Positions 8,787-36,198 of a stretch of 64,000 nt of DNA are shown here, piece after piece. A model generated the notes under the pieces. It was not told the origin of the DNA. It ran no database searches and saw only the letters and a list, made by a program, of their open reading frames with translations. Source of the stretch: Alphaproteobacteria bacterium (GTDB lineage Bacteria; Pseudomonadota; Alphaproteobacteria; UBA9219); assembly GCA_028683655.1 (NCBI GenBank), contig JAQUHK010000002.1, forward strand, positions 996 through 64,995. Reading direction: 5' to 3'. The stretch's first letter is position 1. Every line of letters begins with the position of its first letter. The translations under genes and the position numbers were made by a program.

Positions 8787-8803
8787 AAAGAGGGGAGGTC
8801 AAA

Positions 8804-12800: not shown

Positions 12801-12876
12801 TGTTGAGAACGAGTCCTTCAAACGCTTTGTCAGCGACATGGTCTTTGGGATAACAAACGAGGCTCGGCCAACTTGA
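9862..12876 (+). CDS. hsdR: Type I restriction enzyme R subunit HsdR (ResIII/SF2 helicase)
   Basis: Walker A HSAGSGKSNS; DEAH-like VIDEAHSSQ; motif III FTATP; QTLSRLNR motif VI. ATGA overlap with the darG stop. Confidence 0.9.
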   Translation: MTTDTSEKGLETLIIRHMTGLDGIGVAPNQVAEQPNASGTGYHAGSPKDFDRTHILDVPQLFAFLRATQLAAFEKLGIANADDPKDITRLQLLARLSSEIGKRGVIDVIRKGIEHGPVHFDLFYATPSEGNVKAQELHAKNRFSITRQVGYSLDEARRALDLCLFINGLPISTFELKNSLTKQTVEDAVEQYRRDRDPRELLFGFGRCVVHFAVDDSEVRMCTELKGKASWFLPFNKGYNDGAGNPPNSTGLKTDYLWKEILHPQRLTEILENYAQIVEIKNEKTGRKKRVQIFPRYHQLRVVRKTLADVQANGVGKRYLIQHSAGSGKSNSIAWLSHQLIGVKRNDKEVFGSVIVVTDRTILDDQIQKTIKQFLQVGAIVGHAEHSGDLRKFITEGKKIIVSTVQKFPFILDEISAVGGKTFAIVIDEAHSSQGGKTSTAMSRALSNPTTEEEVDPEDTVNEALEKRIAGRRMLTNASYFAFTATPKNKTLEMFGEALPPDSEGKVKHTPFDSYTMKQAIEERFILDVLKAYTPVDSYYKLIKRIEDDPEFDAKRANKKLRKFVETHDHAIRLKAEIMVDHFHNQVIASGKIGGQARAMIITNGIERAIQYYHAVKDYLVERKSPYQAIVAFSGEPEYKGIKVSEASLNGFSSNDIADRIQNDPYRFLICANKFQTGYDEPLLHTMYVDKPLAGIQAVQTLSRLNRAHPQKHDCFVLDFQNNSESITLAFQDYYRTTILSEETDPNKLHDLKAALDDAQVYSPQQIETFVSLFLAGAERDKLDPILDVCVATYSEALDEDQQVDFKGKAKMFTRTYDFLASVMPYTNSEWERLSILLNLLVPKLPAPKEQDLSKGILEAIDMDSYRVEKKAVMKLALENKDASIAPIPLDNRGGRAEPELDRLSNIIHSFNENFGTLFTDSDRVVKRIREDIVPQVAADIAYQNAKQNTPHTARMAHDQALNRVMQALLKDDTHVYKQFVENESFKRFVSDMVFGITNEARPT

Positions 12877-17770: not shown

Positions 17771-18035
17771 CTGCATGCACCCAAGTCGCATTCTCGATCA
17801 AATCACCACCGCAACAGATAAACGGTTTGAGCTTGTCGCGTGTATTGCTGACGCAATAGTTGAAACGACAATGGAGGTCGGTTACTGCGCGCAGGTAACT
17901 CTCATAGACAAAGGCTTCACGCATCAAGATGTAGCATATCTCTGGCATTTTGCCTGTGCGCTTGCTGACGTTGAACTTAAGTGCAGCAAGAACGGCATTT
18001 GTTCCCCTTTCGAGAAGGGGGTGCGCTATGCATAA
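17763..18035 (+). CDS. Hypothetical protein (90 aa)
   Basis: ATG at 17763 preceded by ggaggaag; overlaps neighbouring genes by a few nt. Confidence 0.35.
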   Translation: MINCMHPSRILDQITTATDKRFELVACIADAIVETTMEVGYCAQVTLIDKGFTHQDVAYLWHFACALADVELKCSKNGICSPFEKGVRYA

Positions 18036-18315
18036 AACGAAAGCTTGCTCGTCCCCTGCCTACATTAAGAAAGAGAGAATATCAAAACCAACAGAGAAAC
18101 TAACGCATAGAGAAGTCGAAATTTTGACTTGGAGCGCGAGAGGCAAGACACGCTCGGAAATATCCATCATACTGTCACTTTCTGAAGAAACAGTCAAAGA
18201 TCATTTAGCAAGAATCCTTCGGAAGCTGGGAGCAGTTAATAAAGTGCATGCTGTTTCAATAGCGTGTGTTCTAGGACTGATTGTGCCCTATCAAGAAAGC
18301 AACTTGAACGAGTGA
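18028..18315 (+). CDS. LuxR/GerE-type HTH transcriptional regulator (DNA-binding domain only)
   Basis: LTHREVEILTWSARGKTRSEISIILSLSEETVKDHLARILRKLGAVNKVHAV matches the GerE HTH. Confidence 0.65.
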   Translation: MHKTKACSSPAYIKKERISKPTEKLTHREVEILTWSARGKTRSEISIILSLSEETVKDHLARILRKLGAVNKVHAVSIACVLGLIVPYQESNLNE

Positions 18316-18457
18316 ATAAGAGAACAATGCCCCCAAACGGGGGATAACAATTAATTTGGCAAAGTGCTATGGGATGATGGCGGGCTAACAGGCAAGACAT
18401 AGAAAACATGGACGCTTAGTATATAAAATATGTCAAAATTGTGGCTTGATCTTTATT

Positions 18458-18481
18458 CCAATGAGCAATAGGCTCATTAGG
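18458..18481. promoter_or_regulatory. Near-palindromic putative operator (CCAATGAGC-N5-GCTCATTAGG) about 55 bp upstream of the aaRS-like gene
   Basis: Inverted repeat ATGAGC / GCTCAT with flanking complementarity, seen directly in sequence. Confidence 0.3.
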
Positions 18482-18533
18482 CAAGGGCTTTTATGACGAT
18501 CAGTGGCTTATTTCTCAAACATAGGAGGAACTA

Positions 18534-19589
18534 GTGCTTAGTGGTGCTCAAAAAGAAGTAGACGTGGCTAATCAACCGATTATAACGCCTTGTAATGCTT
18601 GGAAGAACAAGGAATTCTACCTTAAAAATCTTTTGCAAGACCCTTGGTACGCCTTCACTTCAAAACTTCTGAGTGCAATCTACGTGGCAACACACGATTT
18701 CTTTGAAAAGAAATCTATCAAGCCTTTTGTTTTCCCGATTACAACGGGCTCTGTCAGCAGCCCCATGGGCATGGGAAGTGATTCTCTTCCTGTTCAGATA
18801 TCACTGAGGGGCAATGATGTCTTCCTAGCCGATTCCATGCAGTTTTCGCTTGAAGTCGGAACTAGGCTTAATCGAGATGGAGCGTACTATGTTATGCCAA
18901 CCTTTCGTGGGGAATCTGTTGATTCACGTCACTTAAATGAATTTGTTCACGCCGAAGTTGAGATTCCCGGAGTGCTTAATGACGTTCAAGATCTGGCTGA
19001 AGGCTATATCCGCCACCTCGTGGCTTACTTGCTCGAAAACTGTGAAAAGGAAGTAGCAGAAATTGCTGGAGACATTGATCATCTTCTTCTCTTGTCGGCG
19101 CGACGCGATCCTTTCACAAAAATTTCCTACAGCGATGCGATACAGGAAATTTTATCCGTGGATGGTGCGCTAGAAGATATTGGCACTGGGTTCTCCAACA
19201 TCACAGCTCTTGGTGAGAAAGCCCTTATGCGCAAACATGGCGACTTCATCTGGTTAACTCATATGCCATGGAGAAATGTGCCGTTTTATCAAGCACAATT
19301 GCAGGGCACCGCCTATTCGATGACGGGTGACCTTCTTGCCGGAATAGGGGAAATTCTTGGATGCGGGCAGCGTGTTGGCTCGCTAGCAGATCTTGAAGAG
19401 TCCCTGCGGGTTCACAATGTTAGCGCAGCGGGTTATGAGTGGTATGCTGAAATGCGTGATCTTTGCCCTATGCAAACCTCTGGCTTTGGCCTTGGAATTG
19501 AGCGATTTCTGCTTTGGGCAACACAAACAAATGATATCCGGAATTGCAGCCTCCTGTATCGTGATCACAACCAGATCTTTTACCCATAA
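18534..19589 (+). CDS. Class II (subclass IIb) aminoacyl-tRNA synthetase catalytic-core paralog / AsnA-like amino-acid ligase, no anticodon-binding domain
   Basis: Motif 2-like PTFRGESVDSRHLNEFVHAEVE (fRxE); motif 3-like SGFGLGIERFLLWAT. GTG start 6 nt after AGGAGG. Length 351 aa is a catalytic core only. Confidence 0.6.
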   Translation: MLSGAQKEVDVANQPIITPCNAWKNKEFYLKNLLQDPWYAFTSKLLSAIYVATHDFFEKKSIKPFVFPITTGSVSSPMGMGSDSLPVQISLRGNDVFLADSMQFSLEVGTRLNRDGAYYVMPTFRGESVDSRHLNEFVHAEVEIPGVLNDVQDLAEGYIRHLVAYLLENCEKEVAEIAGDIDHLLLLSARRDPFTKISYSDAIQEILSVDGALEDIGTGFSNITALGEKALMRKHGDFIWLTHMPWRNVPFYQAQLQGTAYSMTGDLLAGIGEILGCGQRVGSLADLEESLRVHNVSAAGYEWYAEMRDLCPMQTSGFGLGIERFLLWATQTNDIRNCSLLYRDHNQIFYP

Positions 19590-19620
19590 ACCTGTCTACC
19601 TTATATGAAAGGCCTTCACC

Positions 19621-20505
19621 ATGACTCTAGATATTGCATGGCCAAGCAGAGAAAAAAAAGATCGCGCTCGCGAAACAGTGGAATATTTCAATCCGAAAGC
19701 TAAAGATTATGACAAGACGGATGAACAGAGCTATTGGGTTTTTTCTGATCGACTCTTGTGGAGGTTGTTAAACGACCATATTTTGAGCGATTTGGCAAAA
19801 ATTAAGCCGTCATTTTCTCTTCTCGACGCAGGCTGTGGCACAGCGCGCTGGTCGTCAAAGATTTTAGAGGCTTACCCACAAAGTAGTGCAACTCTTCTGG
19901 ACATTACGCCAAACATGCTCGAAGTTTCTAAACAGAAACTTGAGAGCATGGGGCTTTCGTCACGAGCTGTATTGAAGCAACTGGATCTGAATGATTTAGA
20001 AGGCTTTCCGTTAAATCCACACGATTTGGCAATTTGTTTTCACAACGTGCTAAGTTTTGTTGTTGATCCTGCGGCAGTCATTCGAAGCCTTGTGAATAAA
20101 ATCAACGGTGGAGGAACGATATGTCTTGTTATTCCCAATCTTTTCCATGCCGTAAGTTTCAGCGCATCACTCGGGCGAATGATTGAGGTTAAGAGAGCCA
20201 TGAAGTCCTGCGCCGTCAAGTTTACAGATGAGGTTCCTGAGATGTGGGTATTCTCACCTGACAAAATCAAGAAAATCTTTGCATCTGCCGGTGTTTTGGA
20301 CTGCAGCGTCTTTGGCTTTCCCGTAACAGTATACCCACAGTTCGAAGAGACACAAATTGTAGGCAACAGCTCAAACAACAGCAAGCTTTTTGCAAATGAT
20401 GCTGCCGTTCAAACGTTGTTCGAAACTGAGCTGGTTTTATCAAACCAGCAAGAAGCGGCAGCACGTGGAAACAATCTGTTGGTAATTGCAAGAAAAGCAA
20501 CGTGA
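19621..20505 (+). CDS. Class I SAM-dependent methyltransferase
   Basis: LLDAGCGTARWS motif I (G-x-G-x-G). Confidence 0.7.
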   Translation: MTLDIAWPSREKKDRARETVEYFNPKAKDYDKTDEQSYWVFSDRLLWRLLNDHILSDLAKIKPSFSLLDAGCGTARWSSKILEAYPQSSATLLDITPNMLEVSKQKLESMGLSSRAVLKQLDLNDLEGFPLNPHDLAICFHNVLSFVVDPAAVIRSLVNKINGGGTICLVIPNLFHAVSFSASLGRMIEVKRAMKSCAVKFTDEVPEMWVFSPDKIKKIFASAGVLDCSVFGFPVTVYPQFEETQIVGNSSNNSKLFANDAAVQTLFETELVLSNQQEAAARGNNLLVIARKAT

Positions 20506-20569
20506 TCCTGTTTCTGGCATAACTTTATTATGAAATGAGCCACCGCATCAGCGGTTTATTGGGGGAAGA

Positions 20570-21859
20570 ATGCAGGCCAAAGATTTTTCGGATAGCTGCG
20601 CTCGTATTCGAGACGCCTTTATCCAGTCATTTCAAGATGCTCAGTTTGTCAATTTCGGCGTTAAGCCTCTAGTTCCGGAAGCTGATCAAAGCGTCATTTT
20701 TGTCGGTGCCTCTATTTCTGCTTTCAAACCATTCTTAACCAACCAATTGGTCTTTAACCAGAAATTCGATAACATGGTGCTTGTGCAACCATGTTTGCGT
20801 TTACACAATCTCAATAACCTTCTGAAGACACCTGTTCTTCAATACTACAGTTATTTCAATATGCTTGGCGCACTATGTCAACCATCTGCCGAAAAGCTAA
20901 CGATTGATGCCCTTGTCCGTTTCGTGGGTCAAATAATGACGAAAGGCATCATTAGAGCAAGCCGTCAGGAAACACCTTATTACTCAATATTCAATAATGC
21001 ATTCTCTATTGAACTTGACACACGTCCACCAGAATATTACAGCTGGATTTTTGGCACCAAAGAGTACATTGGGAAAGGCGTGACTCTTGCTCTTTCTAAC
21101 CACAACAAGAACTTCTGGCAGTTTAGCGTCAAAGATATTAGCAAGCCAGGTGCTGCTGCCTTGCCAGAAAACTTTGGAACAGGATTTCAGGATGTAGGCA
21201 ACCTTATCCGCCTATATGACCATAGTGGTCGACATATTGCGTCCGAAATTGGGCTTGGAATTGAAACAATTCATCAAGCTCAAAGTAATTGTGCGAGCCA
21301 GGTTGAAAGCTATGCGTACAAATCCATTCTTGAAAAGGTGTGTTCTAACGCCAGCGACCATTTTGTCGACTCAGCTGTTACATCGACAATCATCGTACAA
21401 GCAGGCGTGCGCGACGAAAATTCAAAAAGGGGTCAGCTTCTGAACAAAGCTGTGCGTAATACCGTATACACGGGATTAATAGAAGGGATGAATTTGGATC
21501 AAATAACGCGATCCACAGACACCTTGAATCAATTTTTAGGTGGCTCCCCATCAAACGCTGAAGACGTGCGCAAAATTGTAGAAAAGCAGTACTATGCTGC
21601 GATAAAGAATATTACAAATCTTGGCAGAGTTTTATCATCACCGCCCTCATCTGGGCGCGATGAGCATAGCCGAAAAAAGCTTGTAAAAAAAGTAATGAAC
21701 CTTGCTGATGGTGAATACTATATTCCGGATGTTGTGAGGGATCATCTTTTAAGCCAAAAAGGTCTGGTTGATCCTAGTCAGAATGGAGCTACTCCCTATC
21801 GCCCGCTTGACAGGCTGTTCCAGTTCATTCAGTCCAATCCTGCGCCAATTATGTGCTAA
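20570..21859 (+). CDS. Divergent alanyl-tRNA-synthetase catalytic-domain-like protein (paralog of 23076..24380)
   Basis: PLVPEADQSVIFVGASISAFKPFL and VQPCLRLHNLNN...YFNMLGA parallel AlaRS SLVPxNDPTLLFTNAGMxxFK and QxCxRxxxxHNDxxNVG...TFFEMLGN. The GDTGPCGPC block is absent. Confidence 0.45.
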   Translation: MQAKDFSDSCARIRDAFIQSFQDAQFVNFGVKPLVPEADQSVIFVGASISAFKPFLTNQLVFNQKFDNMVLVQPCLRLHNLNNLLKTPVLQYYSYFNMLGALCQPSAEKLTIDALVRFVGQIMTKGIIRASRQETPYYSIFNNAFSIELDTRPPEYYSWIFGTKEYIGKGVTLALSNHNKNFWQFSVKDISKPGAAALPENFGTGFQDVGNLIRLYDHSGRHIASEIGLGIETIHQAQSNCASQVESYAYKSILEKVCSNASDHFVDSAVTSTIIVQAGVRDENSKRGQLLNKAVRNTVYTGLIEGMNLDQITRSTDTLNQFLGGSPSNAEDVRKIVEKQYYAAIKNITNLGRVLSSPPSSGRDEHSRKKLVKKVMNLADGEYYIPDVVRDHLLSQKGLVDPSQNGATPYRPLDRLFQFIQSNPAPIMC

Positions 21860-21874
21860 AACGGGAGATATAAG

Positions 21875-22942
21875 ATGTCAGTGCTATTGAAAAATTTGGT
21901 TCGTCCGCGATGCCTTCAAGCCGGTGACTTAGTTGCTGCTGTAAGCTTATCTTGGGGTGGAGCTGCGATTTTTCCTCACCGGTATGAAACGGGCAAAAGT
22001 CAGTTTGAGCAGGCTTATGGCATCCGCGTGGTTGAGATGAAACATACGCTTAAATCTCCTGCGTGGATTGCTCAAAATCCGGCAGCAAGAGCCGATGACT
22101 TAATGGAGGCCTTCACAAATCCCGAAATATCAGGAATCGTGTCTGTCATTGGTGGCGATGATTCAGTGCTTATTTTGCCCTATTTGGATATAGGGGTAAT
22201 CGAGAAGAATCCGAAGCTATTTGTCGGTTATTCGGATACAACGGTAACTCATTTTGCTTGTTTAAAAGCTGGTGTGACAAGTTTTTACGGCCCCAGCATT
22301 ATGGCAGGATTTGCTGAAAATGCGGGTTTGCATAGTTATATGCGTCATTCTATCGAGAAAACCATGTTTTCACCTGAACCCGTCGGAACCATTATGCCAG
22401 CACAGGGCTGGACTACCGAACATCTTGACTGGGCCAGTCCTGAAAATCAAAAGCAGGCGCGAAAGATGAATCCTAATACAGGCTGGGTGTGCTTGCAAGG
22501 CACAGGCCGCACACAAGGTCGCTTGATTGGCGGGTGTGTAAGTACAATGCAGATGATTGAGGATACAAACATATGGCCAGAGCTTGATGTTTGGCGCGAC
22601 GGAATTCTTTTCTGCGAAGTCTCTGAGGAACTATCGTCAGCAGATGACTTCAAATTATGGCTACGCCATATGGGAGAAAAAGGCATATTGCAGGTTCTTA
22701 ACGGCATTCTCTTTGGGCGTCCCAGTGGACAAACGCCAAAAGCCGATTGGCATTTGTTTGACGAGGCATTTCTTTCGGTGATCCGTGATGAGCTTTCCCT
22801 GACAAGCCTTGCCATACTCTCACATCTGGATTTTGGCCATACGGACCCTATGTTTGTATTACCCTACGGTGTCATGGCCGAAATTGACTGTGACAAAACC
22901 TCGCTTGCTATACTTGAAAAAGCTGTGTTACCAAGGAGTTAG
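21875..22942 (+). CDS. Peptidase S66 family (LD-carboxypeptidase LdcA / microcin C immunity MccF-like)
   Basis: KLFVGYSDTTVTHFACLKAG contains the S66 GYSD catalytic-serine motif. Confidence 0.65.
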   Translation: MSVLLKNLVRPRCLQAGDLVAAVSLSWGGAAIFPHRYETGKSQFEQAYGIRVVEMKHTLKSPAWIAQNPAARADDLMEAFTNPEISGIVSVIGGDDSVLILPYLDIGVIEKNPKLFVGYSDTTVTHFACLKAGVTSFYGPSIMAGFAENAGLHSYMRHSIEKTMFSPEPVGTIMPAQGWTTEHLDWASPENQKQARKMNPNTGWVCLQGTGRTQGRLIGGCVSTMQMIEDTNIWPELDVWRDGILFCEVSEELSSADDFKLWLRHMGEKGILQVLNGILFGRPSGQTPKADWHLFDEAFLSVIRDELSLTSLAILSHLDFGHTDPMFVLPYGVMAEIDCDKTSLAILEKAVLPRS

Positions 22943-23075
22943 GAATGCAAAGGTGTGTTGGCGGAACAAGCAACAAGGTGTAAACTCTGGCGCAGGTTGA
23001 GATGTTTGGCGTGCTTTAGCGTGAGCCGAATAAATAGAAAAAAAGATACCAACTTAACAATGAAAAGGGGGAATT

Positions 23076-24380
23076 ATGACAACCACCACACAAATTATTC
23101 GTGAGCAATTTTTAGAGTTCTTTCAATCACGTGATCACATGATCATCCCTGGAGCCAGCCTAGTTCCCTCGAACGATCCAACTTTATTGCTGATAAATTC
23201 TGGCATGGCTCCTATCAAACCCTATTTTACAGCGGAAGCTGTGCCCATTAGCCCCCGCCTGTGCAATGTTCAAAAATGCATCCGCACTAATGACATTGAG
23301 GATGTCGGCGATCGTTCACATTTAACATTCTTTGAGATGCTTGGCAGCTGGTCGATTGGAGATTATTTTAAAGATGTCGCGGTAGAGCTTGCCGGAGATC
23401 TGCTGATGGGGAAGTTAAATATTCCTCAAAGTAAACTATATGCTACTGTCTATAAAGGAAACGACACAATTGGGCTAGCTTACGATGAAGAAAGCCATCG
23501 CGCATGGGAACGGTTGGGTTTCAAAAGCAATCAAATTGTTCCTCTTGGTGATGAAGATAATTTATGGGGGCCCGCTGGTGACACAGGGCCATGTGGACCA
23601 TGCACCGAGGTGTTCATTGATCTTGGCGACAAAACAGGTATTGGCAGCTATGAAGAAACTGGCATCTTTAACACACGCCGCTACATTGAGATTTGGAATG
23701 CTGGTGTCTTTATGCAGCTTAACAAAAATGCTGATGGCTCGTATGCCCCACTTCCATTTACCAGCGTGGACACAGGCGCAGGCCTAGAGCGTCTAACTAT
23801 GGCCATTAATGGCAATGAAAATGTGTATCAGGAGGAGCCGTACACATTACTTCTGACACAAATGCCTTCGGTTTTCTCGCAACATGAATGTCGTGTCGTT
23901 GCAGATCATGTGCGCGCCGCTTCACACCTTATTAGTGATGGTGTGTCGCCTGGGCGTAATGGCAGGGAATATATTACGCGACGCCTTATCCGTCGAATGG
24001 AAACAATCGCCGCATGTCATCGAACAAAGATTCCATATCCAGAACTGTTAAATGTCGTGCAGGCTAAAGACGGCAGAAATCACGAGGAATTTAAAAAAAG
24101 CGACGCCTTAATTAGAGAAGTTGTTGCGGCGGAAGTTGCCGTGTTTTCCCGCACACTGTCTTCAGGTCTTAAGGCATTCGATAAAGTTACCCGTAAGTTG
24201 AATGGATCAGCTGAATTGCCAAGCCAACATGCTTTCAACATCGTTACGGCTCATGGCTTTCCCTTAGAGGCCCTTGAACAAATTGCGACGACGCGTGGGC
24301 TGCGTATTGATCGACCAGGGGTGGAGCTTCTTATGGATCGACACAAAGCACTGTCACGCGGCGCGCCAAAACCAAAGTAA
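23076..24380 (+). CDS. Alanyl-tRNA synthetase N-terminal fragment-like protein (aminoacylation plus tRNA-recognition domains only; no editing or C-Ala domains), 434 aa
   Basis: Near-collinear match to the AlaRS N-terminus: LVPSNDPTLLLINSGMAPIKPYF, CIRTNDIEDVG, HLTFFEMLGSWSIGDYFK, GDTGPCGPCTEVF, RYIEIWNAGVFMQ, SVDTGAGLERL, RVVADHVRAASHLISDGV. Ends where the editing domain would begin. Confidence 0.8.
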   Translation: MTTTTQIIREQFLEFFQSRDHMIIPGASLVPSNDPTLLLINSGMAPIKPYFTAEAVPISPRLCNVQKCIRTNDIEDVGDRSHLTFFEMLGSWSIGDYFKDVAVELAGDLLMGKLNIPQSKLYATVYKGNDTIGLAYDEESHRAWERLGFKSNQIVPLGDEDNLWGPAGDTGPCGPCTEVFIDLGDKTGIGSYEETGIFNTRRYIEIWNAGVFMQLNKNADGSYAPLPFTSVDTGAGLERLTMAINGNENVYQEEPYTLLLTQMPSVFSQHECRVVADHVRAASHLISDGVSPGRNGREYITRRLIRRMETIAACHRTKIPYPELLNVVQAKDGRNHEEFKKSDALIREVVAAEVAVFSRTLSSGLKAFDKVTRKLNGSAELPSQHAFNIVTAHGFPLEALEQIATTRGLRIDRPGVELLMDRHKALSRGAPKPK

Positions 24381-24396
24381 TAGGCCTTTCCTCAAA

Positions 24397-24423
24397 AGAT
24401 ATAGCCTCGTCGAGGCTATATCT
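24397..24423. terminator. Perfect palindrome / hairpin after the mini-AlaRS gene
   Basis: AGATATAGCCTCG / CGAGGCTATATCT inverted repeat. No clear T-run, so it may be a terminator or a protein-binding site. Confidence 0.3.
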
Positions 24424-24525
24424 TGAAAGGAGACGTGCTGGACAACACACCTTTCTCATTATCTGTTGCGCACGTCGGATCGAGTAATTAGGAAAGGTTG
24501 ATAGATGCTTCTAATTAGAAATCAA

Positions 24526-24942
24526 ATGAAGGCATTTAAGAACACACTGCTTCTTGTTCTAGTTGCACAGGCAATCGTCGGATGTCGCGGACAAGAAAAA
24601 AACGACAAGCGAAGCGATTTTATGAAGCAGTGCATTTCATTCAGAACGAATGACAAAATTCATTCAGTCGTGTTTAAGCAAGGGCAAGTCGTTATAACAA
24701 GAAGCTTTCTTGCACCGACTAGATTTGAAAGTTTTTACGTTTGTTTAAATGAACCACGCTGTGAGGATAAATTGGAATCTTGGCATTTGGGACCAGACAC
24801 GACGGGTCGTTTTGTGCGGCTTGTGAGTCCGAGCTCATTACCTACTCCTACGATGGTAAAGCGTGTGGACAAAACCGAGCCATTGCTGGCCAGAGGGAAC
24901 GCATTTCACGCCACGATTAAAGAGTGCGTAGCTTATGAATAG
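24526..24942 (+). CDS. Putative lipoprotein (about 138 aa)
   Basis: MKAFKNTLLLVLVAQAIVGC is a lipobox-like signal peptide (IVGC). Confidence 0.4.
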   Translation: MKAFKNTLLLVLVAQAIVGCRGQEKNDKRSDFMKQCISFRTNDKIHSVVFKQGQVVITRSFLAPTRFESFYVCLNEPRCEDKLESWHLGPDTTGRFVRLVSPSSLPTPTMVKRVDKTEPLLARGNAFHATIKECVAYE

Positions 24943-24964
24943 GCCACAAAAACAAAGGAACACG

Positions 24965-26065
24965 ATGAAAAAGATTCAACGTAACAAATATCTAGCCTAT
25001 GCGAGCAACTTGAAGCGGGAAGAAATTAAACAGATTGCAACCTATGTGCTGTGGCTTCCCGATCAAATCATCGACTGCCATGCACACTGCAATCTGGACA
25101 TACATGTTAAATCTTTGTCCCCAACTGTCTACAATCATATGATGTCAACCTTTCCAAGTTTTAATTTGGATGAATCTGAATCTTGGACAAAAGTCTTGCT
25201 GCCCGGCAAGGACGTTCAGCACCTCCGTTTTCCACATGCTTTTCCTGGCATTGATCACAGGGCTGCAAACACGTATCTCTTGGAAAACTCGCCCGACAAG
25301 GACTTGGTCGCGATCTATGGAATCCCCAATGATATTCCCTACACAATTGAAACGCTTAATCATCCTCGCGCTTCGGCTCTCAAAATGTACTATTTATATT
25401 TAGATCCTCCAGCGAAAGATGTATATCAATTTTTTCCAACACAGGTTTTGAAAGAGGCTGAGCGTTTAAAAAAGCCGATCATTTTGCATCTTCCGAGCCC
25501 GCTCCCTCAATGCGTTGATCAAGTCGAACGTTTAGCACAAGATTTTCCTGAGCTGAAGATTTGCCTCGCGCATTTGGGTGTTTGCGAAACAGTTACCTCT
25601 GAATTGGAATCGGCCTTTCGGAAGATCAGGCCCTATCCCAATATCAATATGGACACGGCACTTGTGCCCTCTTCTAAAGTTGTAAGTTTGGCCTACGATG
25701 TTTTGGGTTTGAAAAGGATCATGTATGGTTCGGATGCCCCCTTAAATCTCATCCGTTCAGTTTGGTATCAAAATCCAGAATTAGGAACCAGATTGGCAAC
25801 CGAATTCCCCTATCATTGGGCAAACCCATCAGAATACGTTAAATATAAACACCTAGCGCTGAATTCCATTCATGCTCAATGGACGGCCTTGGGGGCGATC
25901 CATTCCTTTTTTGATGGGAAGTGGGGTCCAGAACGCATTCAAGCTAAATTAGCCATTTTCCACAGCAACGCCAAAATATTTTTTGGTTTTCCTGATTATG
26001 AACCCACACGGCCTTGTAATACTATACCCAACCTGCAGAACAGCAACGAACAAACATTGAAATAA
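24965..26065 (+). CDS. Amidohydrolase-2 / TIM-barrel metal-dependent hydrolase family protein
   Basis: IIDCHAHC metal-binding start, internal HLPSP and LAHLG, late GSDAP motif. RBS aaggaac before the ATG at 24965. Confidence 0.5.
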   Translation: MKKIQRNKYLAYASNLKREEIKQIATYVLWLPDQIIDCHAHCNLDIHVKSLSPTVYNHMMSTFPSFNLDESESWTKVLLPGKDVQHLRFPHAFPGIDHRAANTYLLENSPDKDLVAIYGIPNDIPYTIETLNHPRASALKMYYLYLDPPAKDVYQFFPTQVLKEAERLKKPIILHLPSPLPQCVDQVERLAQDFPELKICLAHLGVCETVTSELESAFRKIRPYPNINMDTALVPSSKVVSLAYDVLGLKRIMYGSDAPLNLIRSVWYQNPELGTRLATEFPYHWANPSEYVKYKHLALNSIHAQWTALGAIHSFFDGKWGPERIQAKLAIFHSNAKIFFGFPDYEPTRPCNTIPNLQNSNEQTLK

Positions 26066-26082
26066 TCTTACAGGAGAACGAT

Positions 26083-27105
26083 ATGACAACCGTTAATTTA
26101 AGTATTCGTGATTTTGGTGACCATGCCTGTTTATTTATTCCTGTGCAGCGAGGCGTTCGTGTTCTGTGGGAACTGACCAAACGCTGCAATCTTGCATGCA
26201 AACATTGCTTCGTTCCTCCATATTCTAAGGAACGCGGTGATCTTTCTACGGCTCAATGCATCTCAATCATGGACAGTTTTCCTCAAGCTGAAGTCACACG
26301 CATTATATTCAGCGGCGGCGAACCTTTGACGAGGCGAGACATTCCAGAATTGATCCAAGCATCAAATGCGCGAGGCATTCAGGCCGCATTGTGCACAAAT
26401 GCGACACTTGTTACTGACTCTATTGCAAGAGATTTATATCGATCTGGACTTCGCGAAGCTTTCGTCAGCTTAGATGGTGCAACAGCTGAAGTTCATGACG
26501 GACAGAGGGGCCTTTCCGGCAGCTTTGACAGGACTATCAAAGGGATCAAAACGCTTAAGTATAATGGTCTGACCGTTGATATCTCCTGTATTCCGACAAA
26601 GCTAAACATCCATGACTTGCAAGAACTTCCCCGACTATGCAGTTCGCTTGGCTGTTCATCAATAACTTTCGGGGGATGGTTTCCTAAGCAAAACATGCGC
26701 GGCACTGGCGGTGATCTGACGCCTGACGCTCAATCAATGACTAAGTTCCTTCACTCATTCCGAGAGGTCGGTGAGAAAGCCAACATGCCTATGCACACGA
26801 GCAGGCTTGTTCCTCACGCGCCGCTTGAAGCTTGTCCCGCTGGCGTATCTATCATTGGGATAGATGCCAGTGGCCACTACCACCCATGTCTCAATATTCC
26901 TACAACGCATTCCGAAATTACCGATGCGCTGAAGGCATCAATCACAGAAATCCTGAAGAGATTTAAAAAGATACCCGAACTGCCTACGTGCGCAAAAAAT
27001 TGCCCTAGCGGCGAAGAATGCTTTGGCGGCTGCCCAGCGGATAAAATCAATGGGGTAGATAGGGTATGCTCACAAAAAGGATTAGTTTCTTTACAAATTA
27101 GGTAG
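26083..27105 (+). CDS. Radical SAM enzyme with C-terminal SPASM-like Cys-rich domain
   Basis: CNLACKHC (CxxxCxxC) with downstream FSGGEPL. C-terminal CPAGVS...HYHPC...CAKNCPSGEECFGGC cysteine cluster. Confidence 0.8.
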   Translation: MTTVNLSIRDFGDHACLFIPVQRGVRVLWELTKRCNLACKHCFVPPYSKERGDLSTAQCISIMDSFPQAEVTRIIFSGGEPLTRRDIPELIQASNARGIQAALCTNATLVTDSIARDLYRSGLREAFVSLDGATAEVHDGQRGLSGSFDRTIKGIKTLKYNGLTVDISCIPTKLNIHDLQELPRLCSSLGCSSITFGGWFPKQNMRGTGGDLTPDAQSMTKFLHSFREVGEKANMPMHTSRLVPHAPLEACPAGVSIIGIDASGHYHPCLNIPTTHSEITDALKASITEILKRFKKIPELPTCAKNCPSGEECFGGCPADKINGVDRVCSQKGLVSLQIR

Positions 27106-27405: not shown

Positions 27406-27861
27406 TTAGATTTGGCCAGAATTTGCCTTAATAAGTCCAAGAAGAGCCGTAACACTGCTAAGCATCAATTTGGCGTCGCCTTCGGTGATTTCGTCAAGGA
27501 CGCTCCAATCATGCGCTTCGCGCAGACCTGCGACGGTGTCGATGACATGCTCAATATTTTGGCACTCATCGGGGGTTGAGCCGATATTGCGGGTGCTTTT
27601 CACAAACCTCTCGAAGACTTTGATAGAAGTGATGGCGGCAGCATTGTCATTATTGGCCGTATGCTGAGGGAGCTGTTTTTCTGTTGCCCGTTCTGCCTCA
27701 CAGCCGAGACTCGCCATATAGCCCGCGGCAATGCTGTCCGAAGCCCGATAAGCCAATCGTTCTGCTTCGCCATATTGTGCGGCTGTAAGCAACTCTCGCG
27801 CTTGCCGTAGCTGTTCCGTTGCTTGATCGAATAGGGTTTGGCTGTGCGCTGTCATCATCAT
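27406..27861 (-). CDS. Conserved island-backbone hypothetical protein (151 aa), helical
   Basis: Paralog at 51800..52201 (MMMTAHSQTLFDQATEQLR vs MMMNSHSQTLFDQATEQLR). Shared REAHDWS motif. Confidence 0.5.
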   Translation of the reverse strand: MMMTAHSQTLFDQATEQLRQARELLTAAQYGEAERLAYRASDSIAAGYMASLGCEAERATEKQLPQHTANNDNAAAITSIKVFERFVKSTRNIGSTPDECQNIEHVIDTVAGLREAHDWSVLDEITEGDAKLMLSSVTALLGLIKANSGQI

Positions 27862-29090
27862 GCCGCCAGTGAAAAAATCGGGTCATGTCTTGCCGCATCG
27901 GGACTGATAAGTTTAAGGGGCCGTGACGGCGCATTATGTTTTTGCGCCGCCTTGCGCAAGTCAAGGCTTGCCGTTTGCATCGGACGATTACCTAGCACAC
28001 GCTCTTTTCCGCCGATGGCTTTGATTGCGGCGGCAATCTCCGGCTCCTCCAAAACATGGATGTGCATCGGCGGTGTCATGACAGGTTCTCGACGTTTAGG
28101 GGCTAACAGAATGATGTTCTGGGCATCGAACAGGGCCGCAAAAACCTCTCGCACACTCCCGTCACAGGGGATTTGAGGACTTGGCGCGCTTTGGACAAGG
28201 CCGCCCCAGCTACGCTCGCCAATCTCTTGATCCGCTGCTTTGAGTATAGACGACACCACACATTCCAAAACACCTGCATTCGGCAGGCTGCCGTTGCTGA
28301 TAAACTGGCATTGCGTTACAGGCGTTCCCTTAAAGGTAGAAAGACCCTTGGTAAAGCTAGCCATCACCTTTTGCTTCGCATTCGGGCTTTCCCAACTCAC
28401 AACAAAGTTATTGGGATCAATCGTTCCGTCAGCCATCCGCACAAACTGGACATCCACGGGTACTTTGAATCTATCTTCAAGCCCATGCACGCTCTCAATC
28501 TTGAAAAGTGCACTCTCTTCATCCTTACCGAGATGCGCTCCCAACTTTTCTTGGATCGTGACAATACTTCTATTGTCCGGCGCAAACTCGAATATCTCAC
28601 CGACAGGTACACTGCCATCCTTGAACCCATGCGTTGCGTAGTAATCAATGCTGGCTTGAATAAGAGAGTGGCCGAGCCCGCCCTCTGGACGCCTCTTTGC
28701 ATATGGCTTCTCAAGAATTATCTTCTTCATCTCGGAAGGCAGAATGCATACATCCTCGCTATAAATCCCGCGATGAACATCGATGTCATTTCCGTTTCTT
28801 TGCAAAAAGAGTGAACGGAAATTGATCGTCGCACCAACAATCTTTGGATCGCAAGTATCCCATGCAGTGGCAAAGAATAACACTTCAACGTCGCCTGCAG
28901 ACATGACTTTCATGGCGCGTCGGAAACCAACAGCGTCAAATGTCGCTCCATGGATTTTGGCTTCATGTTGAATCGAGTCGCGCAGAATGCCGCTCAACGC
29001 ACAATTGTGGAGGATGTCTTTCTCGTTCTGGGGCAACACGGCGACGTTGAGTCCGCCCATGAGCTGTTGAAAGTTTTTTGTTTCAATCAT
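27858..29090 (-). CDS. Conserved island-backbone hypothetical protein (410 aa)
   Basis: About 75% identical paralog at 52198..53445. No recognisable catalytic motif. Confidence 0.55.
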   Translation of the reverse strand: MIETKNFQQLMGGLNVAVLPQNEKDILHNCALSGILRDSIQHEAKIHGATFDAVGFRRAMKVMSAGDVEVLFFATAWDTCDPKIVGATINFRSLFLQRNGNDIDVHRGIYSEDVCILPSEMKKIILEKPYAKRRPEGGLGHSLIQASIDYYATHGFKDGSVPVGEIFEFAPDNRSIVTIQEKLGAHLGKDEESALFKIESVHGLEDRFKVPVDVQFVRMADGTIDPNNFVVSWESPNAKQKVMASFTKGLSTFKGTPVTQCQFISNGSLPNAGVLECVVSSILKAADQEIGERSWGGLVQSAPSPQIPCDGSVREVFAALFDAQNIILLAPKRREPVMTPPMHIHVLEEPEIAAAIKAIGGKERVLGNRPMQTASLDLRKAAQKHNAPSRPLKLISPDAARHDPIFSLAA

Positions 29091-30832: not shown

Positions 30833-31417
30833 ATGTCCTCAGACACAAACAACCGCCCGCCCATCACCCCTCAGTTCCGGCACACAGCCCGCGCCGTGTG
30901 TCGACCCCTCGGTCTTTATGACAGCCTGAAAAATCAAGTCCCGCCCCAAAGCGGCGAGACACAAGAACGGTCAGACACTTTGTCTGACAAAAAAGCTAAA
31001 AGCTTCGCGCAAGTTGCGCCTTTGGTCAGACCACCAGTGGTCAGACCAAAGCCATGCGAGCTAAAGCTCGGAAGAGAAAGACCTCATCGCCTGATGGCAA
31101 GGTTCTCCGACGATGAAAAGGCTTTCGTTCAGCGGAAGGCAAAAACCGCCCGCCTATCGTTGAGCGAATATATCCGTGTCTCGGTCTTGGGGGATGTCTA
31201 TGTCTCGACCGTTGATCCGGAGCGGCAAAAGCTTCTGCACGATTTGAGCCGTGAGCTTGGTTATCAGGGCAACAACCTTAACCAGATCGCCAAACACCTC
31301 AATGCAGGCGGGGAGTCCCAGCAAGGCGAAGGCATGCTGGCGGCGATCTTTGACTCGCTTGTTGACGCTCACAATGCCGTGCGCCGCGCCATGGCAGAAA
31401 GGAAGCGTTATGAATGA
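30833..31417 (+). CDS. mobC: MobC-family mobilization protein (ribbon-helix-helix)
   Basis: RLSLSEYIRVSVLG and LSRELGYQGNNLNQIAKHLN match MobC hallmark motifs. Confidence 0.8.
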   Translation: MSSDTNNRPPITPQFRHTARAVCRPLGLYDSLKNQVPPQSGETQERSDTLSDKKAKSFAQVAPLVRPPVVRPKPCELKLGRERPHRLMARFSDDEKAFVQRKAKTARLSLSEYIRVSVLGDVYVSTVDPERQKLLHDLSRELGYQGNNLNQIAKHLNAGGESQQGEGMLAAIFDSLVDAHNAVRRAMAERKRYE

Positions 31418-32157
31418 TTATTAAATCAACCATACGCGGCGGCTATCTTTCGGCGGCCCAATATATGAAGGATATTGGCGAGAACGAGAAAACGCGCATT
31501 GTTGAACTGAGTGATCCAAAGGCCAAAGACCTTGACGATGCCTGTTATAAGATGTGGGTGATCGCTTGCCCAACCAAGGTTAAAAAGCCGCTTCACCACA
31601 TCAGCATCAACCCGATGAAGGGCGAGCATCTGACCGACAAGCAGGTTCTGGCCATCGCGGACAGGTGCGAAGAGGTTTATGGCTATAAAATGTTTCATCA
31701 CCAGCGTGTGATTGTCGAACACGTCAAGGACGGGCGGCAGCACTTTCACGTTATCTGGAACCGCGTGAGCCTTGTCACGGGCACGACAGTATGGCCGGGG
31801 CATCACTGGAAAAAGTCCAAGCAAGTCGCTCGCGAGATGGAAGTCAGGCTTGGCCTTAAACGACCACAGCCAAGGAGTACGGGAGCCAAGGGAAGCAAAA
31901 CGAGAACAGCAAAACCGCGTTCGACAGGCTTGCGATTATCGAATCCGGACAGGAAGTCACCTCAAACAAAAAGCAAGTCCACGCCGCCGCCAGCTCGCTA
32001 TAGACCGGAGAGAAAGAAGGCCGCGCCACCACCGCCTATGCAGCCCACGCACCCCAAGAAAAAACGCTGGCCAGAGCAAGCCATCATCGACTGGGAAGTC
32101 TGGGGTCATTTATGGCCGAGGCGCTTCTTCGCGCTCTGGCCGGAACTGACGATTTAA
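31414..32157 (+). CDS. MobA/MobL-type relaxase (relaxase/mobilisation nuclease domain)
   Basis: N-term MIIKSTIRGGYLSAAQYM (catalytic Tyr region); HHISINP; HFHVIWNRV histidine triad. ATGA overlap with mobC. Confidence 0.75.
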   Translation: MIIKSTIRGGYLSAAQYMKDIGENEKTRIVELSDPKAKDLDDACYKMWVIACPTKVKKPLHHISINPMKGEHLTDKQVLAIADRCEEVYGYKMFHHQRVIVEHVKDGRQHFHVIWNRVSLVTGTTVWPGHHWKKSKQVAREMEVRLGLKRPQPRSTGAKGSKTRTAKPRSTGLRLSNPDRKSPQTKSKSTPPPARYRPERKKAAPPPPMQPTHPKKKRWPEQAIIDWEVWGHLWPRRFFALWPELTI

Positions 32158-32594
32158 GGAGCTTCGTTGCGTTCGCCCAAATCCTGATAAAAACGCAGCA
32201 TATAGCCGTCCGGATCAAGAACGATAAATTGTCGGTTGCCGACATAAACATCATCGGCCCGATACCATTTTTCTTCAATGGGAAGGAAGACTGTAGCTCC
32301 GGCTTTTTGTACGCGAGCATAAAGACCGTCAACGTCATCCGTTTCGATTTGCAGGTTCATACCACGACCAAATGGAGGCTCCAGCGACGCGGCAGTCCAG
32401 CTCCTGTCGCTGCTGGGGACAAGTTCGTCGAGCATGATCCGTGCGCCTTGGCGTTCGAGCATGGCGAAGCCTTCTTCTTCTCGCTGATACTGAACCTTGA
32501 AACCCAGCACATCGAGATAGAAAGACAAGCTTCCCTTAATGTCGCGGCACATGAGTTCCGGTGTCAGGACTGTATACAAAAAATCATTACTCAT
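32154..32594 (-). CDS. VOC / glyoxalase-bleomycin-resistance family protein
   Basis: MSNDFLYTVLTPELMCRDIKGSLSFYLDVLGFKV is a typical VOC N-terminus. Island A only; a remnant is at 56433..56684. Confidence 0.6.
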   Translation of the reverse strand: MSNDFLYTVLTPELMCRDIKGSLSFYLDVLGFKVQYQREEEGFAMLERQGARIMLDELVPSSDRSWTAASLEPPFGRGMNLQIETDDVDGLYARVQKAGATVFLPIEEKWYRADDVYVGNRQFIVLDPDGYMLRFYQDLGERNEAP

Positions 32595-32863
32595 CACAAA
32601 CCTCATACAGAGAAAGGGGATCATGCCACCGAACCGCATTAAAACAAAATCATTTTACCTATCGAAACACAAACGCCGCGTTTATCGCGTCATGGAGGAA
32701 AACACAGCCACAGTATTCTTTTTATCAAAAACCCAAGCCGCCCTTTATGTCCTCGGACGGCAACTCATGAAGATGATGGACAAACAGCAATAAACCTCAA
32801 ACCCGCTCCGTAAGGAGCTTCTTTTAACCCACCCGCCGGAACGCCTTCCGAGCGGGATTTTTT

Positions 32864-33856: not shown

Positions 33857-33869
33857 TGGGAGGTTCTGC

Positions 33870-34289
33870 ATGACAGAAAACAATCCTTATCAAAGCATAC
33901 ACGGGGGCAGGGAAGAGCGGCTCGATTTTCCAGAATTAAAGGAACTTCCCAGTCTCGCCACCGCAAGTCAAATTGCCTGCTTTTTAAAATGTTCGAGACG
34001 GCATGTTTTGAATGAGTGCCATGCCGGACGCATTGAGTTCGTCAACATTGCAGGCCGTTTTTTAATCACACCACACAGTCTCAAAAATTATATTCAAGAA
34101 AGGATACAACCATGTCAAAGAGCAATAAAGGAGCCTATCTCAAATGGATTGAAGCGCGTAACGCGTGGTACATTGTCTGGTTCGAACACGGACGCGAGTA
34201 CAAGAAATCGACGGGCACTCGAAATCGCATTGAAGCTGACCAAGCACTCAGTTTGCACAACATCGAAAAAGACCAACCCATTGACATAG
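33870..34289 (+). CDS. AlpA/excisionase-like HTH protein (putative Xis); 3' end overlaps the integrase by about 177 nt in another frame
   Basis: ELPSLATASQIACFLKCSRRHVLNECHAGRIEFVNIAGRFLI is an AlpA-like HTH. The true stop is uncertain. Confidence 0.4.
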   Translation: MTENNPYQSIHGGREERLDFPELKELPSLATASQIACFLKCSRRHVLNECHAGRIEFVNIAGRFLITPHSLKNYIQERIQPCQRAIKEPISNGLKRVTRGTLSGSNTDASTRNRRALEIALKLTKHSVCTTSKKTNPLT

Positions 34290-35952: not shown

Positions 35953-36198
35953 TTAAGACTCTGGCCCTTCCTCATCAGAGAAAAAGTCAGCGACTTCAGT
36001 ATTTATATGCTCAACCATTGAGATAATGCTCTCCTTCTCTGTATCAGTAAATTTACCCTCCAACTCAGGCTCATCTAGCCTTCTTGTATTGATCAGATCT
36101 TTGATCATGTCGGTATAACTAAATGCTGTCTTTTCACCAGCAACCAGTTTATGAACCGATATTTCTAACTCTTCATTTTTGCTAAATACCAATTTCAT
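35953..36198 (-). CDS. Small acidic hypothetical protein (81 aa)
   Basis: ORF overlaps the downstream gene start by 4 nt (operon-like). Confidence 0.35.
   Translation of the reverse strand: MKLVFSKNEELEISVHKLVAGEKTAFSYTDMIKDLINTRRLDEPELEGKFTDTEKESIISMVEHINTEVADFFSDEEGPES

Follow-up and report, generated by a model that had tools for sequence, protein, structure and literature searches.

What is made by a run of eight closely spaced genes, three of which encode proteins related to class II aminoacyl-tRNA synthetases (aaRSs), in an alphaproteobacterial genome? The genes lie in a stretch of 64,000 nt from an Alphaproteobacteria bacterium (GCA_028683655.1, contig JAQUHK010000002.1, positions 996-64,995 of the forward strand), which was analyzed as a whole and is called the window below. 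Eight open reading frames (ORFs) on the + strand occupy positions 18534-27105 of the window, with intergenic gaps of 31, 64, 15, 133, 124, -8 and 17 nt, and the families of the window ORFs were assigned with Pfam and NCBIfam. An earlier reading of the bare DNA, here the original prediction, had described eight contiguous genes on one strand downstream of LuxR and XRE regulators, and the ORF list and Pfam agree with this layout. Pfam and NCBIfam also agree with its calls for an AsnA/AsnRS-like core without an anticodon-binding domain, an S-adenosylmethionine (SAM) methyltransferase and an amidohydrolase. It had further proposed an aminoacyl-nucleotide-type pathway with a tRNA-dependent step, and this is still the best reading, based on homology to AgnA of the agrocin 84 cluster, the signature of the ascamycin enzyme AcmF in the second synthetase-like protein, and an MccF-like S66 peptidase that keeps a diagnostic Trp. 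More specifically, we consider it probable, if far from secure, that positions 18534-24380 are a five-gene cassette of the agrocin 84 (AgnA) family for an adenine-nucleotide antimetabolite that mimics alanyl-AMP and inhibits the alanyl-tRNA synthetase (AlaRS) of competitors.

Which of the eight genes belong together can be seen from the relatives of the third, which encodes a divergent truncated AlaRS-like protein (hereafter DAL; 20570-21859, + strand). DAL has just four close homologues among 5.8 billion proteins, and their neighbourhoods were used to delimit the unit. At two loci (L001 and L002) the first five genes occur in the same order, as same-length orthologues with 64-82% identity to those of the window, among ordinary chromosomal genes (nuo, lon, clpXP, tig); nothing at either locus resembles the 145-aa ORF, the amidohydrolase or the radical SAM enzyme encoded by the last three genes of the window cluster. 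At a further locus, L003, a genuine ArgRS gene, which may be a housekeeping gene, comes after the first three genes, and L004 has the order mini-AlaRS, DAL, S66. Additional lineages with DAL, S66 and mini-AlaRS are represented by L028, L090, L091 and L092, the first, second and last of which also have an AgnA-like (AsnA-like) gene adjoining the methyltransferase gene. The remaining one, L091 (3155-13111), encodes DAL, a methyltransferase of the AgnB1 type, mini-AlaRS and S66, and has no recognizable AgnA-like gene. It also carries two dCTP-deaminase-like genes, a His_Phos_1 phosphatase gene and a cytidine-deaminase-like gene, with an integrase gene adjoining, and may be a pyrimidine-nucleotide version. 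Because the first five genes alone recur as a block in other loci, the system is 18534-24380, and the last three genes are unproven additions. In other words, the eight-gene cluster of the original prediction stands for its first five genes, which are kept as a block elsewhere, and not for the lipoprotein, amidohydrolase and radical SAM genes, which fall outside the conserved unit. Decay of the synthetase-like genes, one of its worries, was not seen: given the same-length orthologues and the strong conservation of active sites throughout the families, these genes are intact. Co-occurrence in other genomes, which it had also asked for, was found as the five-gene block of L001 and L002 and as a core in most of the 81 loci described below.

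The first gene (18534-19589, + strand) encodes an AsnRS-core-like adenylating ligase of 351 aa (Pfam tRNA-synt_2, 112 bits). A translated plasmid search showed that it is a full-length homologue of AgnA of plasmid pAgK84, annotated "Agrocin84-synthetase" (40.6% identity over 340 aa, E 6e-100). The AlphaFold2 model of the ligase (pLDDT 90.7) has an AsnRS/AspRS-type catalytic core, with AsnRS 1x54 as the top Foldseek match (TM 0.81). Compared with archaeal-type asparagine synthetase A (an AsnRS paralogue, PRK06462) and AsnRS, the protein shares the class IIb aaRS catalytic core, has no anticodon-binding domain and keeps motifs 2 and 3 intact, but it scores well under the equivalog cutoffs of the NCBIfam AsnA/AsnRS models (211 vs 322 and 136 vs 414), carries a family-specific invariant loop (TTGSVSSPMGxGSDSxPV) as well as invariant residues not found in AspRS or LysRS, and is linked to a methyltransferase and an S66 peptidase. 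Over 81 AgnA-like homologues, conservation reaches at least 95% at more than 70 positions, which include class II motifs 2 and 3, whichever aaRS is linked to the homologue, and AgnA itself carries nearly all of these positions. Given that substrate-binding residues should vary if the enzyme chose a variable acyl group, the AgnA-like enzyme probably performs a constant step instead of making that choice. The same constancy across targets would argue against AgnA attaching the leucine-like moiety of agrocin 84. It also bears on the aspartyl warhead suggested in the original prediction, which is probably not defined by this enzyme, as its conserved residues are invariant across clusters with different types of aaRS. 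Judging from these alignments, we infer a division of labour in which constant scaffold chemistry (the AgnA-like enzyme, the methyltransferase and perhaps S66) would be combined with variable acylation by aaRS-derived transferases.

The best candidate for such a transferase in the window is DAL. Its relationship to AlaRS is detectable from sequence in residues 13-100, and the AlphaFold2 model (pLDDT 92.9) extends it: AlaRS catalytic fragments 1riq and 3hxu were on top in Foldseek (TM 0.62-0.66 over about 445 columns), so that in the predicted structure DAL matches, over its full length, the fold of an AlaRS catalytic fragment with the aminoacylation and tRNA-recognition domains only. The original prediction had called it a divergent AlaRS-catalytic-like protein, which fits well. 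A DAL profile collected 712 stand-alone relatives of about 320-430 aa. In the profile alignment with E. coli AlaRS, R77 of DAL corresponds to R69, N211 to N212, E226 to D235 and T233 to the Arg of motif 3. Among 152 sequences of the DAL family, R77 is kept in all, F96 in 151, E226 in 136 and N211 in 134, with Gln in the other 18, 11 of which have an AcmF-like Glu three residues upstream. None of the 152 sequences has Arg at the motif 3 position, and the GPCGPCTE region is absent. The positions for V214 and G237 of E. coli AlaRS remain small (I/V and G/A, respectively), which fits alanine or glycine as the substrate, and elsewhere DAL-like genes are paired with an additional GlyRS gene or with one for a PurD-like glycine-type ligase.

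These features recall the ascamycin (acm) cluster of Streptomyces sp. AcmF, a truncated AlaRS-like protein, consists of the aminoacylation and tRNA-recognition domains only; the ATP-binding and alanine-activating residues are missing, it carries N219Q and D232E, of which Glu232 is essential, and it moves alanine from Ala-tRNA(Ala) to dealanylascamycin, at the sulfamate nitrogen (PMC12945691, reviewing Zheng et al. 2024). The cluster also encodes an AlaRS, AcmD, for Ala-tRNA supply and self-resistance, and AcmE, which hydrolyses the product (PMC12945691). Likewise, the window has a truncated and reprogrammed AlaRS-like protein, and beside it a second AlaRS gene and a hydrolase able to remove an aminoacyl group. 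As in AcmF, the ATP-binding residues of DAL are lost and the Asp at the alanine alpha-amine site (Asp235 in E. coli) has become Glu, the equivalent of Glu232; the Arg, Phe and Asn/Gln residues of the adenosine site are retained, which matches the published description of AcmF. Ascamycin is an alanyl-adenylate mimic, the product class that we propose for the window. The two clusters also differ. AcmD is a full-length AlaRS of 871 aa, whereas the window has a 434-aa fragment without the residues that read the G3:U70 pair of tRNA(Ala); the acm hydrolase is an alpha/beta hydrolase and that of the window an S66 peptidase; and the sulfamate-forming genes (sulfate adenylyltransferase, APS kinase, sulfotransferase) are missing from the window, where the AgnA-type core is found in their place. 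An exact-protein lookup of DAL returned no record, and AcmF was not recognized by its published residue numbering among the top 150 hits of the DAL profile. By analogy, we regard DAL as a candidate AcmF-like aminoacyl-tRNA-dependent transferase.

The partner of DAL would be the mini-AlaRS of 434 aa (23076-24380, + strand), which consists of the aminoacylation and tRNA-recognition domains. As originally predicted, it has no editing domain: the match to the Pfam AlaRS profile (tRNA-synt_2c, 379 bits) covers positions 2-430 only, and the protein ends at a natural stop. It aligns to E. coli AlaRS441 at 1e-76 and falls under the NCBIfam cutoffs (TIGR00344, 383.7 vs 457; PRK01584, 371.9 vs 529). The adenylation residues are intact (R69, N212, D235, G237 and the E-R of motif 3) and are also kept in the orthologues. 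Stand-alone AlaRS fragments of about 435 aa are common. The subclade without both G3:U70 readers was linked to such clusters in every case sampled, all three further loci lying in AgnA-like/DAL/S66 clusters, and the mini-AlaRS subclade occurs with DAL and S66 in at least seven lineages. The loss of a four-residue loop, "GGKH" (Lys73), was considered as a sign that the protein does not charge tRNA. This argument was withdrawn because the deletion is found in all 120 closest relatives, including functional-looking forms of about 596 aa that keep N303 and D400. By analogy with the agn and acm clusters, we propose an AcmD/AgnB2-like role for the mini-AlaRS, which may charge tRNA(Ala), hand Ala-AMP to DAL, or be an insensitive copy of the target.

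Is the peptidase of the cassette a detoxifying enzyme of the MccF type? Its gene (21875-22942, + strand; Pfam Peptidase_S66 N and C domains) is the counterpart of agnC5, and S66 enzymes include LdcA, a cell-wall recycling enzyme, with which the original prediction had feared it might group. Such a grouping was not seen: its relatives in the PDB were BA3275 of B. anthracis (5e-99), MccF (about 1e-32) and, at 1e-7 to 1e-19, LdcA proteins. Identity was 28.7% over 349 aa to AgnC5 (E 5e-43) and 29% to MccF (E 6e-36). The Ser/Glu/His triad is kept in all 67 cluster-linked S66 proteins, with equivalents of S118, E243 and H311 in the window protein, and the equivalent of Trp186, which stacks on adenine in MccF, is present in 58 of the 67, including that of the window; W179 is also conserved. 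On the other hand, the residues at positions 220, 246 and 247 of MccF (N, R and K), which we take to contact the aspartyl side chain, are S, E and E in the window protein and variable over the 67 proteins. Because these positions are replaced, the sequence suggests that the acyl specificity of the window enzyme differs from that of MccF. The likeness of the window to the microcin C (mcc) cluster is confined to an S66 peptidase with the catalytic triad and Trp186, a class I SAM-dependent enzyme and the logic of an aminoacyl-adenylate mimic, whereas MccB (ThiF-like), MccE and MccC are missing. None of the eight cluster proteins matched MccB of a real mcc operon (L087) in BLAST, Pfam found no ThiF domain, and no mcc-type precursor peptide was identified in the window, although no search for one was made.

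The second gene (19621-20505, + strand) encodes a class I SAM-dependent methyltransferase (Pfam Methyltransf_31/25/12/11) in the position of AgnB1. Its best solved relatives are the carboxylate O-methyltransferases CmoM (5e-9) and LahSB, and it is 82% and 61% identical to the methyltransferases of L001 and L003, respectively. The slot beside the AgnA-like gene holds an AgnB1-type methyltransferase at 44 loci and one of the window's type at 22, with four matched by both. Against the hidden Markov model of the AgnB1 type the window enzyme scored 42.6 bits, close to the score of the unrelated AgnC3. An MccD-like identity is unsupported, as there was no BLAST match and both are simply class I folds.

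We compared the window with the agn operon of pAgK84 from Rhizobium rhizogenes K84, which encodes, in order, AgnA, a SAM methyltransferase (AgnB1), a resistant LeuRS (AgnB2), AgnC1, an SDR protein, a methyltransferase, an amidohydrolase, an MccF-like S66 peptidase (AgnC5), a PhyH protein and a NirJ-like radical SAM enzyme. Agrocin 84 targets LeuRS, AgnA has been proposed to form its phosphoramide bond, and AgnC1 is remotely ProRS-like (PMC8323819). Both clusters have an AgnA homologue directly followed by a SAM methyltransferase (of a different subfamily in each), an MccF-like S66 peptidase, a cluster-encoded aaRS, a class II aaRS-like accessory protein, a NirJ/AhbD-type radical SAM enzyme, an amidohydrolase and a location on a mobile element. 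However, the synthetase is a full-length LeuRS in agn and a truncated AlaRS in the window, and the accessory protein is the ProRS-like AgnC1 in the one and the AlaRS-like DAL in the other; it follows that the predicted target and the aminoacyl part differ. Homologues of agnC1, agnC2, agnC6, agnD, agnE, agnF and the exporter gene agnG are absent from the window cluster. When the eight proteins of the cluster were compared by BLAST with all agn proteins, the only matches were to AgnA, AgnC3 (a generic methyltransferase match), AgnC5 and AgnC7. The two amidohydrolases are unrelated and the radical SAM similarity is merely generic, and we rejected the window methyltransferase, amidohydrolase and radical SAM enzyme as specific orthologues of AgnC3, AgnC4 and AgnC7, respectively, since their similarity is generic or absent. 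The original prediction knew of no described cluster of such composition; this must be corrected, because agn shares much of it and ascamycin has the AcmD/AcmF pair. The literature that we searched contained no description of the AgnA/methyltransferase/S66 core as a widespread unit, or of this core combined with an AcmF/AcmD-like pair. Both parents, agn and acm, are known; what appears to be new is their combination in one cluster and the wide distribution of the core.

How widespread is this core? Previously, clusters like agn had been described in Ensifer sp. ENS09 and some 19 actinobacteria and nowhere else, and in the latter an extra MetRS suggested MetRS as the target (PMC8323819). We found 592 homologue clusters of the AgnA-like protein and relatives in 360 species-representative genomes from many phyla, whose hosts include gut and rumen Alphaproteobacteria, Clostridia, Bacilli, Actinomycetes, Enterobacterales and bacteria of the Candidate Phyla Radiation (CPR). 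From these, the neighbours within 6 kb of the AgnA-like gene were counted at a sample of 81 loci. The methyltransferase was present at 62 of them, S66 at 61 and a DAL-like gene at 18, and a further aaRS or aaRS-like gene was found at 56 (69%), compared with a rough chance expectation of about 8 of 81, which assumes that aaRSs make up about 1% of genes and that each locus has about 11 neighbours. These accessory synthetases are either genuine extra copies (LeuRS, GlyRS, LysRS, ArgRS, AspRS) or strongly diverged paralogues (ProRS-like, MetRS-like and HisRS-like). Other recurrent amino-acid-activating accessories are ATP-grasp L-amino-acid ligases, PurD-like ligases and AMP-binding enzymes, and P-loop kinases, PNP/MTAN-family proteins, pyridoxal phosphate-dependent decarboxylases, B12-radical SAM enzymes and MFS transporters also recur near these loci.

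Several of the loci have features of their own. Versions that are linked to LeuRS and close to agn were found in Clostridia, Providencia, Rahnella and Xenorhabdus. The LeuRS of the Providencia cluster is not the housekeeping enzyme, as its match to E. coli leuS (63% identity) covers merely 22% of the length. In cultured Enterobacterales, a cluster of this kind is found at L096 (8929-19005, on a megaplasmid of Xenorhabdus bovienii), L030 (Providencia) and L034 (Rahnella), and comprises an AgnA-like gene, methyltransferase, S66, a nucleoside phosphorylase and two proteins of the VOC/glyoxalase type, together with an additional LeuRS, a protein related to class II aaRSs and an MFS transporter; the Xenorhabdus version lies entirely on the megaplasmid, leuS, the aaRS-related protein and the transporter included. 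It is a candidate source of a new LeuRS-directed, agrocin-84-like compound in tractable strains. In five loci from gut and rumen Alphaproteobacteria (Candidatus Enterousia; L009, L011, L013, L014 and L025), the AgnA-like/S66/methyltransferase core has a strongly divergent ProRS-like paralogue on both sides (about 400 aa, 73 bits vs a cutoff of 558). Phosmidosine is a natural prolyl-adenylate mimic, an O-methyl phosphoramidate, and in the literature searched no gene cluster for it is described. Two bona fide GlyRS genes (608 bits vs a cutoff of 312) lie in one cluster beside a DAL-like gene at L044, L057 and L077, which suggests a glycyl-directed member in which the synthetases for supply or immunity are duplicated. 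Plasmid pBTZ_2 of Bacillus pseudomycoides (L095, 3939-11765) carries methyltransferase, AgnA-like and ATP-grasp genes with an adenosylhomocysteinase gene (ahcY) near them; a chromosomal S-adenosylhomocysteine hydrolase has been reported as necessary for agrocin 84 production (PMC8323819). On plasmids of Pantoea agglomerans (L094, 8779-11290), a 427-aa protein annotated as a GNAT acetyltransferase combines the AgnA-like domain with an N-terminal extension; an MFS transporter gene comes after it, with no methyltransferase or S66 gene annotated nearby; this is a minimal or different AgnA-like variant.

How might the five proteins of the window work together? Following agrocin 84, the AgnA-like ligase and the methyltransferase would carry out constant steps and assemble a phosphoramidate-type nucleotide scaffold that bears a nucleophilic nitrogen at its 5' position. 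The mini-AlaRS would activate alanine and supply Ala-tRNA, and perhaps also act as an inhibitor-insensitive AlaRS like AcmD and AgnB2. DAL, with its ATP-binding residues lost and its adenosine- and alanine-binding residues kept, would then transfer the alanyl group from the tRNA to the 5' nitrogen in the manner of AcmF, and the S66 enzyme would hydrolyse the acyl-N bond, either to protect the producer or to process an intermediate.

Several points weigh against this proposal. The mini-AlaRS has neither the editing nor the C-Ala domain, and both of its G3:U70 readers are replaced (N303 by R, D400 by T), which makes it uncertain whether the protein charges tRNA(Ala) or confers resistance. DAL has Asn211 where AcmF has Gln219, and it was likened to AcmF from the published residue description. 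The window methyltransferase belongs to another subfamily than AgnB1. Neither an exporter or transporter gene adjoining the cluster nor genes for an uptake moiety (agnD/E/F/G-like) in or beside it were found in the window, and the Trojan-horse and self-immunity roles of the original prediction are hypothetical here. The cluster is located in a dense island of defence and mobile genes. Very small genomes (CPR, gut Alphaproteobacteria) have the core trio of AgnA-like enzyme, methyltransferase and S66 too, often by housekeeping genes, and such a setting would be compatible with a cellular role in place of an antibiotic one. Finally, in the AgnA family a product, activity or phenotype is known for agrocin 84 alone, and its pathway is unresolved (PMC8323819).

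Could the core trio itself be the conserved machine? It is possible, although we would not expect it, that the AgnA-like enzyme, the methyltransferase and S66 are a universal set for making an amino-bearing nucleotide scaffold, which is acylated from aminoacyl-tRNA by interchangeable AlaRS-, ProRS-, MetRS- or HisRS-like transferases. In one route, asparagine would be the nitrogen donor; its amide would be adenylylated, and S66 would then release adenosine phosphoramidate. The peptidase would be biosynthetic and not just an immunity factor, and the paired synthetase would set which cellular aaRS is poisoned. Prolyl phosphoramidate methyl esters of the phosmidosine type could be other products. 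If this were true, modular aminoacyl-adenylate mimics would be made in hundreds of species, including gut commensals and CPR bacteria, and the window would be the AlaRS-directed member.

A rather unlikely explanation is a microcin-C-like logic without a ribosomal peptide, in which the AgnA-like enzyme makes a constant Asp/Asn-adenylate warhead against AspRS or AsnRS, DAL and the mini-AlaRS add an N-terminal alanine carrier for uptake by peptide transporters, and S66 is pure self-immunity. The AsnRS/AspRS-type fold and motifs of the AgnA-like enzyme, with conserved residues that are constant over all clusters, would fit this idea, as would the cleavage of aspartamide-adenylate by MccF and an AspRS gene directly upstream at L068; ATP-grasp L-amino-acid and PurD-like ligases, which recur in related clusters, are as expected for the addition of carrier residues. 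However, the presumed aspartate-contacting positions of MccF are not conserved, being S/E/E in the window. The genuine extra synthetases are mostly LeuRS, GlyRS, LysRS and ArgRS, and not AspRS or AsnRS. Moreover, agrocin 84, the sole characterized product of an AgnA cluster, targets LeuRS (PMC8323819), and AcmF puts the acceptor nitrogen at the alpha-phosphate position and not at the alpha-amine of an amino acid (PMC12945691).

We also considered a role in cellular modification or salvage, which seems improbable. Here the aaRS-like enzymes would aminoacylate a macromolecule or metabolite, such as a tRNA nucleoside, a protein (as EpmA/PoxA or GluQRS do) or a cell-wall peptide, with the methyltransferase esterifying the product and S66 reversing or recycling it. 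The core trio of CPR, reduced gut Alphaproteobacteria and Bacilli often adjoins relA, rpsB or ABC-F genes, the closest solved relative of the methyltransferase is the tRNA enzyme CmoM, the window cluster has no adjoining exporter, and LdcA is an S66 enzyme. Nevertheless, AgnA is part of a genetically defined antibiotic cluster, many clusters carry extra, divergent and plasmid-borne aaRS copies together with MFS exporters, the distribution is patchy and the genes are mobile, and the S66 protein is MccF-like, with the adenine-stacking Trp, and far from LdcA. No more probable is a cargo of resistance or defence alone, whether a detoxifying cassette (S66 with an insensitive AlaRS) or inducible, abortive-infection-like self-intoxication by an intracellular aaRS inhibitor: the cluster does lie without an exporter amid type I and type III-like restriction-modification (R-M) genes, GmrSD, DarT/DarG, AAA ATPases and XRE/LuxR regulators on a mobilizable element, and L006 is flanked by conflict-system domains (CTD10, MC6/MC7, Fic), but no PADLOC model matches the core proteins, three biosynthetic-type enzymes (AgnA-like, methyltransferase and DAL) that a pure resistance cassette would not need are kept with S66, L001 has the same five genes outside any defence island, and many related clusters carry exporters.

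With the alanyl-AMP-mimic cassette preferred, what are the three genes downstream of it? The first (24505-24942, + strand) is an ORF of 145 aa whose N-terminus looks, by eye, like a signal peptide with a lipobox (...LVAQAIVGC); it had no match in Pfam, NCBIfam or PADLOC. The second (24935-26065, + strand) encodes a metal-dependent hydrolase of the Amidohydro_2 family (PF04909, 46.6 bits), for which similarity was detected neither to AgnC4 nor to the Amidohydro_2 proteins that recur in five other loci. Relatives of these two were found near none of the related loci surveyed. The third (26083-27105, + strand) encodes a radical SAM enzyme (PF04055, 76.7 bits) with a Cys-rich, SPASM-like C-terminus. 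The original prediction had called it a radical SAM-SPASM enzyme; Pfam supports the first part and gives no SPASM call, and a SPASM-type extension is plausible from full-length alignments to the SPASM enzymes MftC and PqqE and from the Cys-rich C-terminus. Its NCBIfam matches (AhbD, NirJ, MftC, PqqE) are all far under the cutoffs, its best match in the PDB is BlsE, a radical SAM enzyme of a nucleoside antibiotic (5e-14), and it is 30% identical to AgnC7 over 187 aa (3e-9). The Amidohydro_2 and radical SAM families recur near other related clusters, where few relatives of this particular radical SAM enzyme were found, the best at L073 (9e-37). An independent short assembly of the window's organism (L093) also has the three genes after the mini-AlaRS gene, which confirms their adjacency only. 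We rejected them as conserved cluster members, as they are absent from L001 and L002 and no more than a few radical SAM relatives lie near related clusters; at most, they are lineage-specific tailoring genes.

On the upstream side, the cluster is adjoined by a gene for a LuxR/GerE-family regulator (17950-18315, + strand; Pfam GerE, 61 bits), with the XRE regulator gene also upstream. The LuxR/GerE protein is a possible regulator of the cluster; its gene is not kept in L001, which has a PAS sensor at that place. Between this gene and the AgnA-like gene is a promoter-like site (18400-18429), although the promoter and terminator scan, in which shuffled sequence gave more sites than the real one, was uninformative. 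Neither a tRNA gene nor an Rfam family was found inside the cluster, and a plasmid search found no near-identical DNA of the window on plasmids. Directly downstream, two ORFs of the - strand (151 aa and 410 aa; 27406-29090) are convergent with the cluster and show no significant family match and no transmembrane segments.

The rest of the window is rich in defence and mobility genes. A type I R-M operon spans 2367-12876 (HsdM at 2367, HsdS at 6784, HsdR at 9832), with other defence genes between its subunits, namely a GmrSD-type endonuclease with DUF5655 (4685-6787), the single-stranded DNA ADP-ribosyltransferase DarT (8133-8786) and its macro-domain, DarG-like partner (8774-9865). A mobilization and integration module (30833-35272) encodes a NikA-like protein, a MobA/VirD2 relaxase, ArdC with a zincin domain and a tyrosine integrase. 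It is followed on the - strand by a second defence block (36195-51426) with an AAA ATPase that has a Ppl-like C-terminus by PADLOC, an AAA_13 ATPase, a ResIII helicase with a restriction endonuclease domain, a PLD-like protein, an N6/N4 DNA methylase and an SNF2 helicase of 1090 aa; the block may belong to a type III-like R-M system or to one resembling DISARM/BREX. A tRNA-Val gene lies at 59049-59123, and the GC content, about 0.44-0.47 in the cluster, is higher past 30 kb (0.53-0.55). PADLOC had no model that matched the core cluster proteins, and the idea that the cluster is a known anti-phage system found no support.

What would the cassette mean for this family? The core of AgnA-like ligase, methyltransferase and MccF-like peptidase is widespread and is combined with varied synthetase modules, that of the window being an ascamycin-like AlaRS pair. 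If our reading is true, it predicts new natural inhibitors of AlaRS, GlyRS, LeuRS, MetRS and ProRS, together with the genes for resistance to them, and the five genes would offer a tractable system for studying how an N-acyl phosphoramidate-type bond forms. It would also call the proposed role of AgnA into question, because the conserved residues of its family are invariant whatever the predicted target. Furthermore, tRNA-dependent transferases derived from aaRSs would reach beyond Streptomyces.

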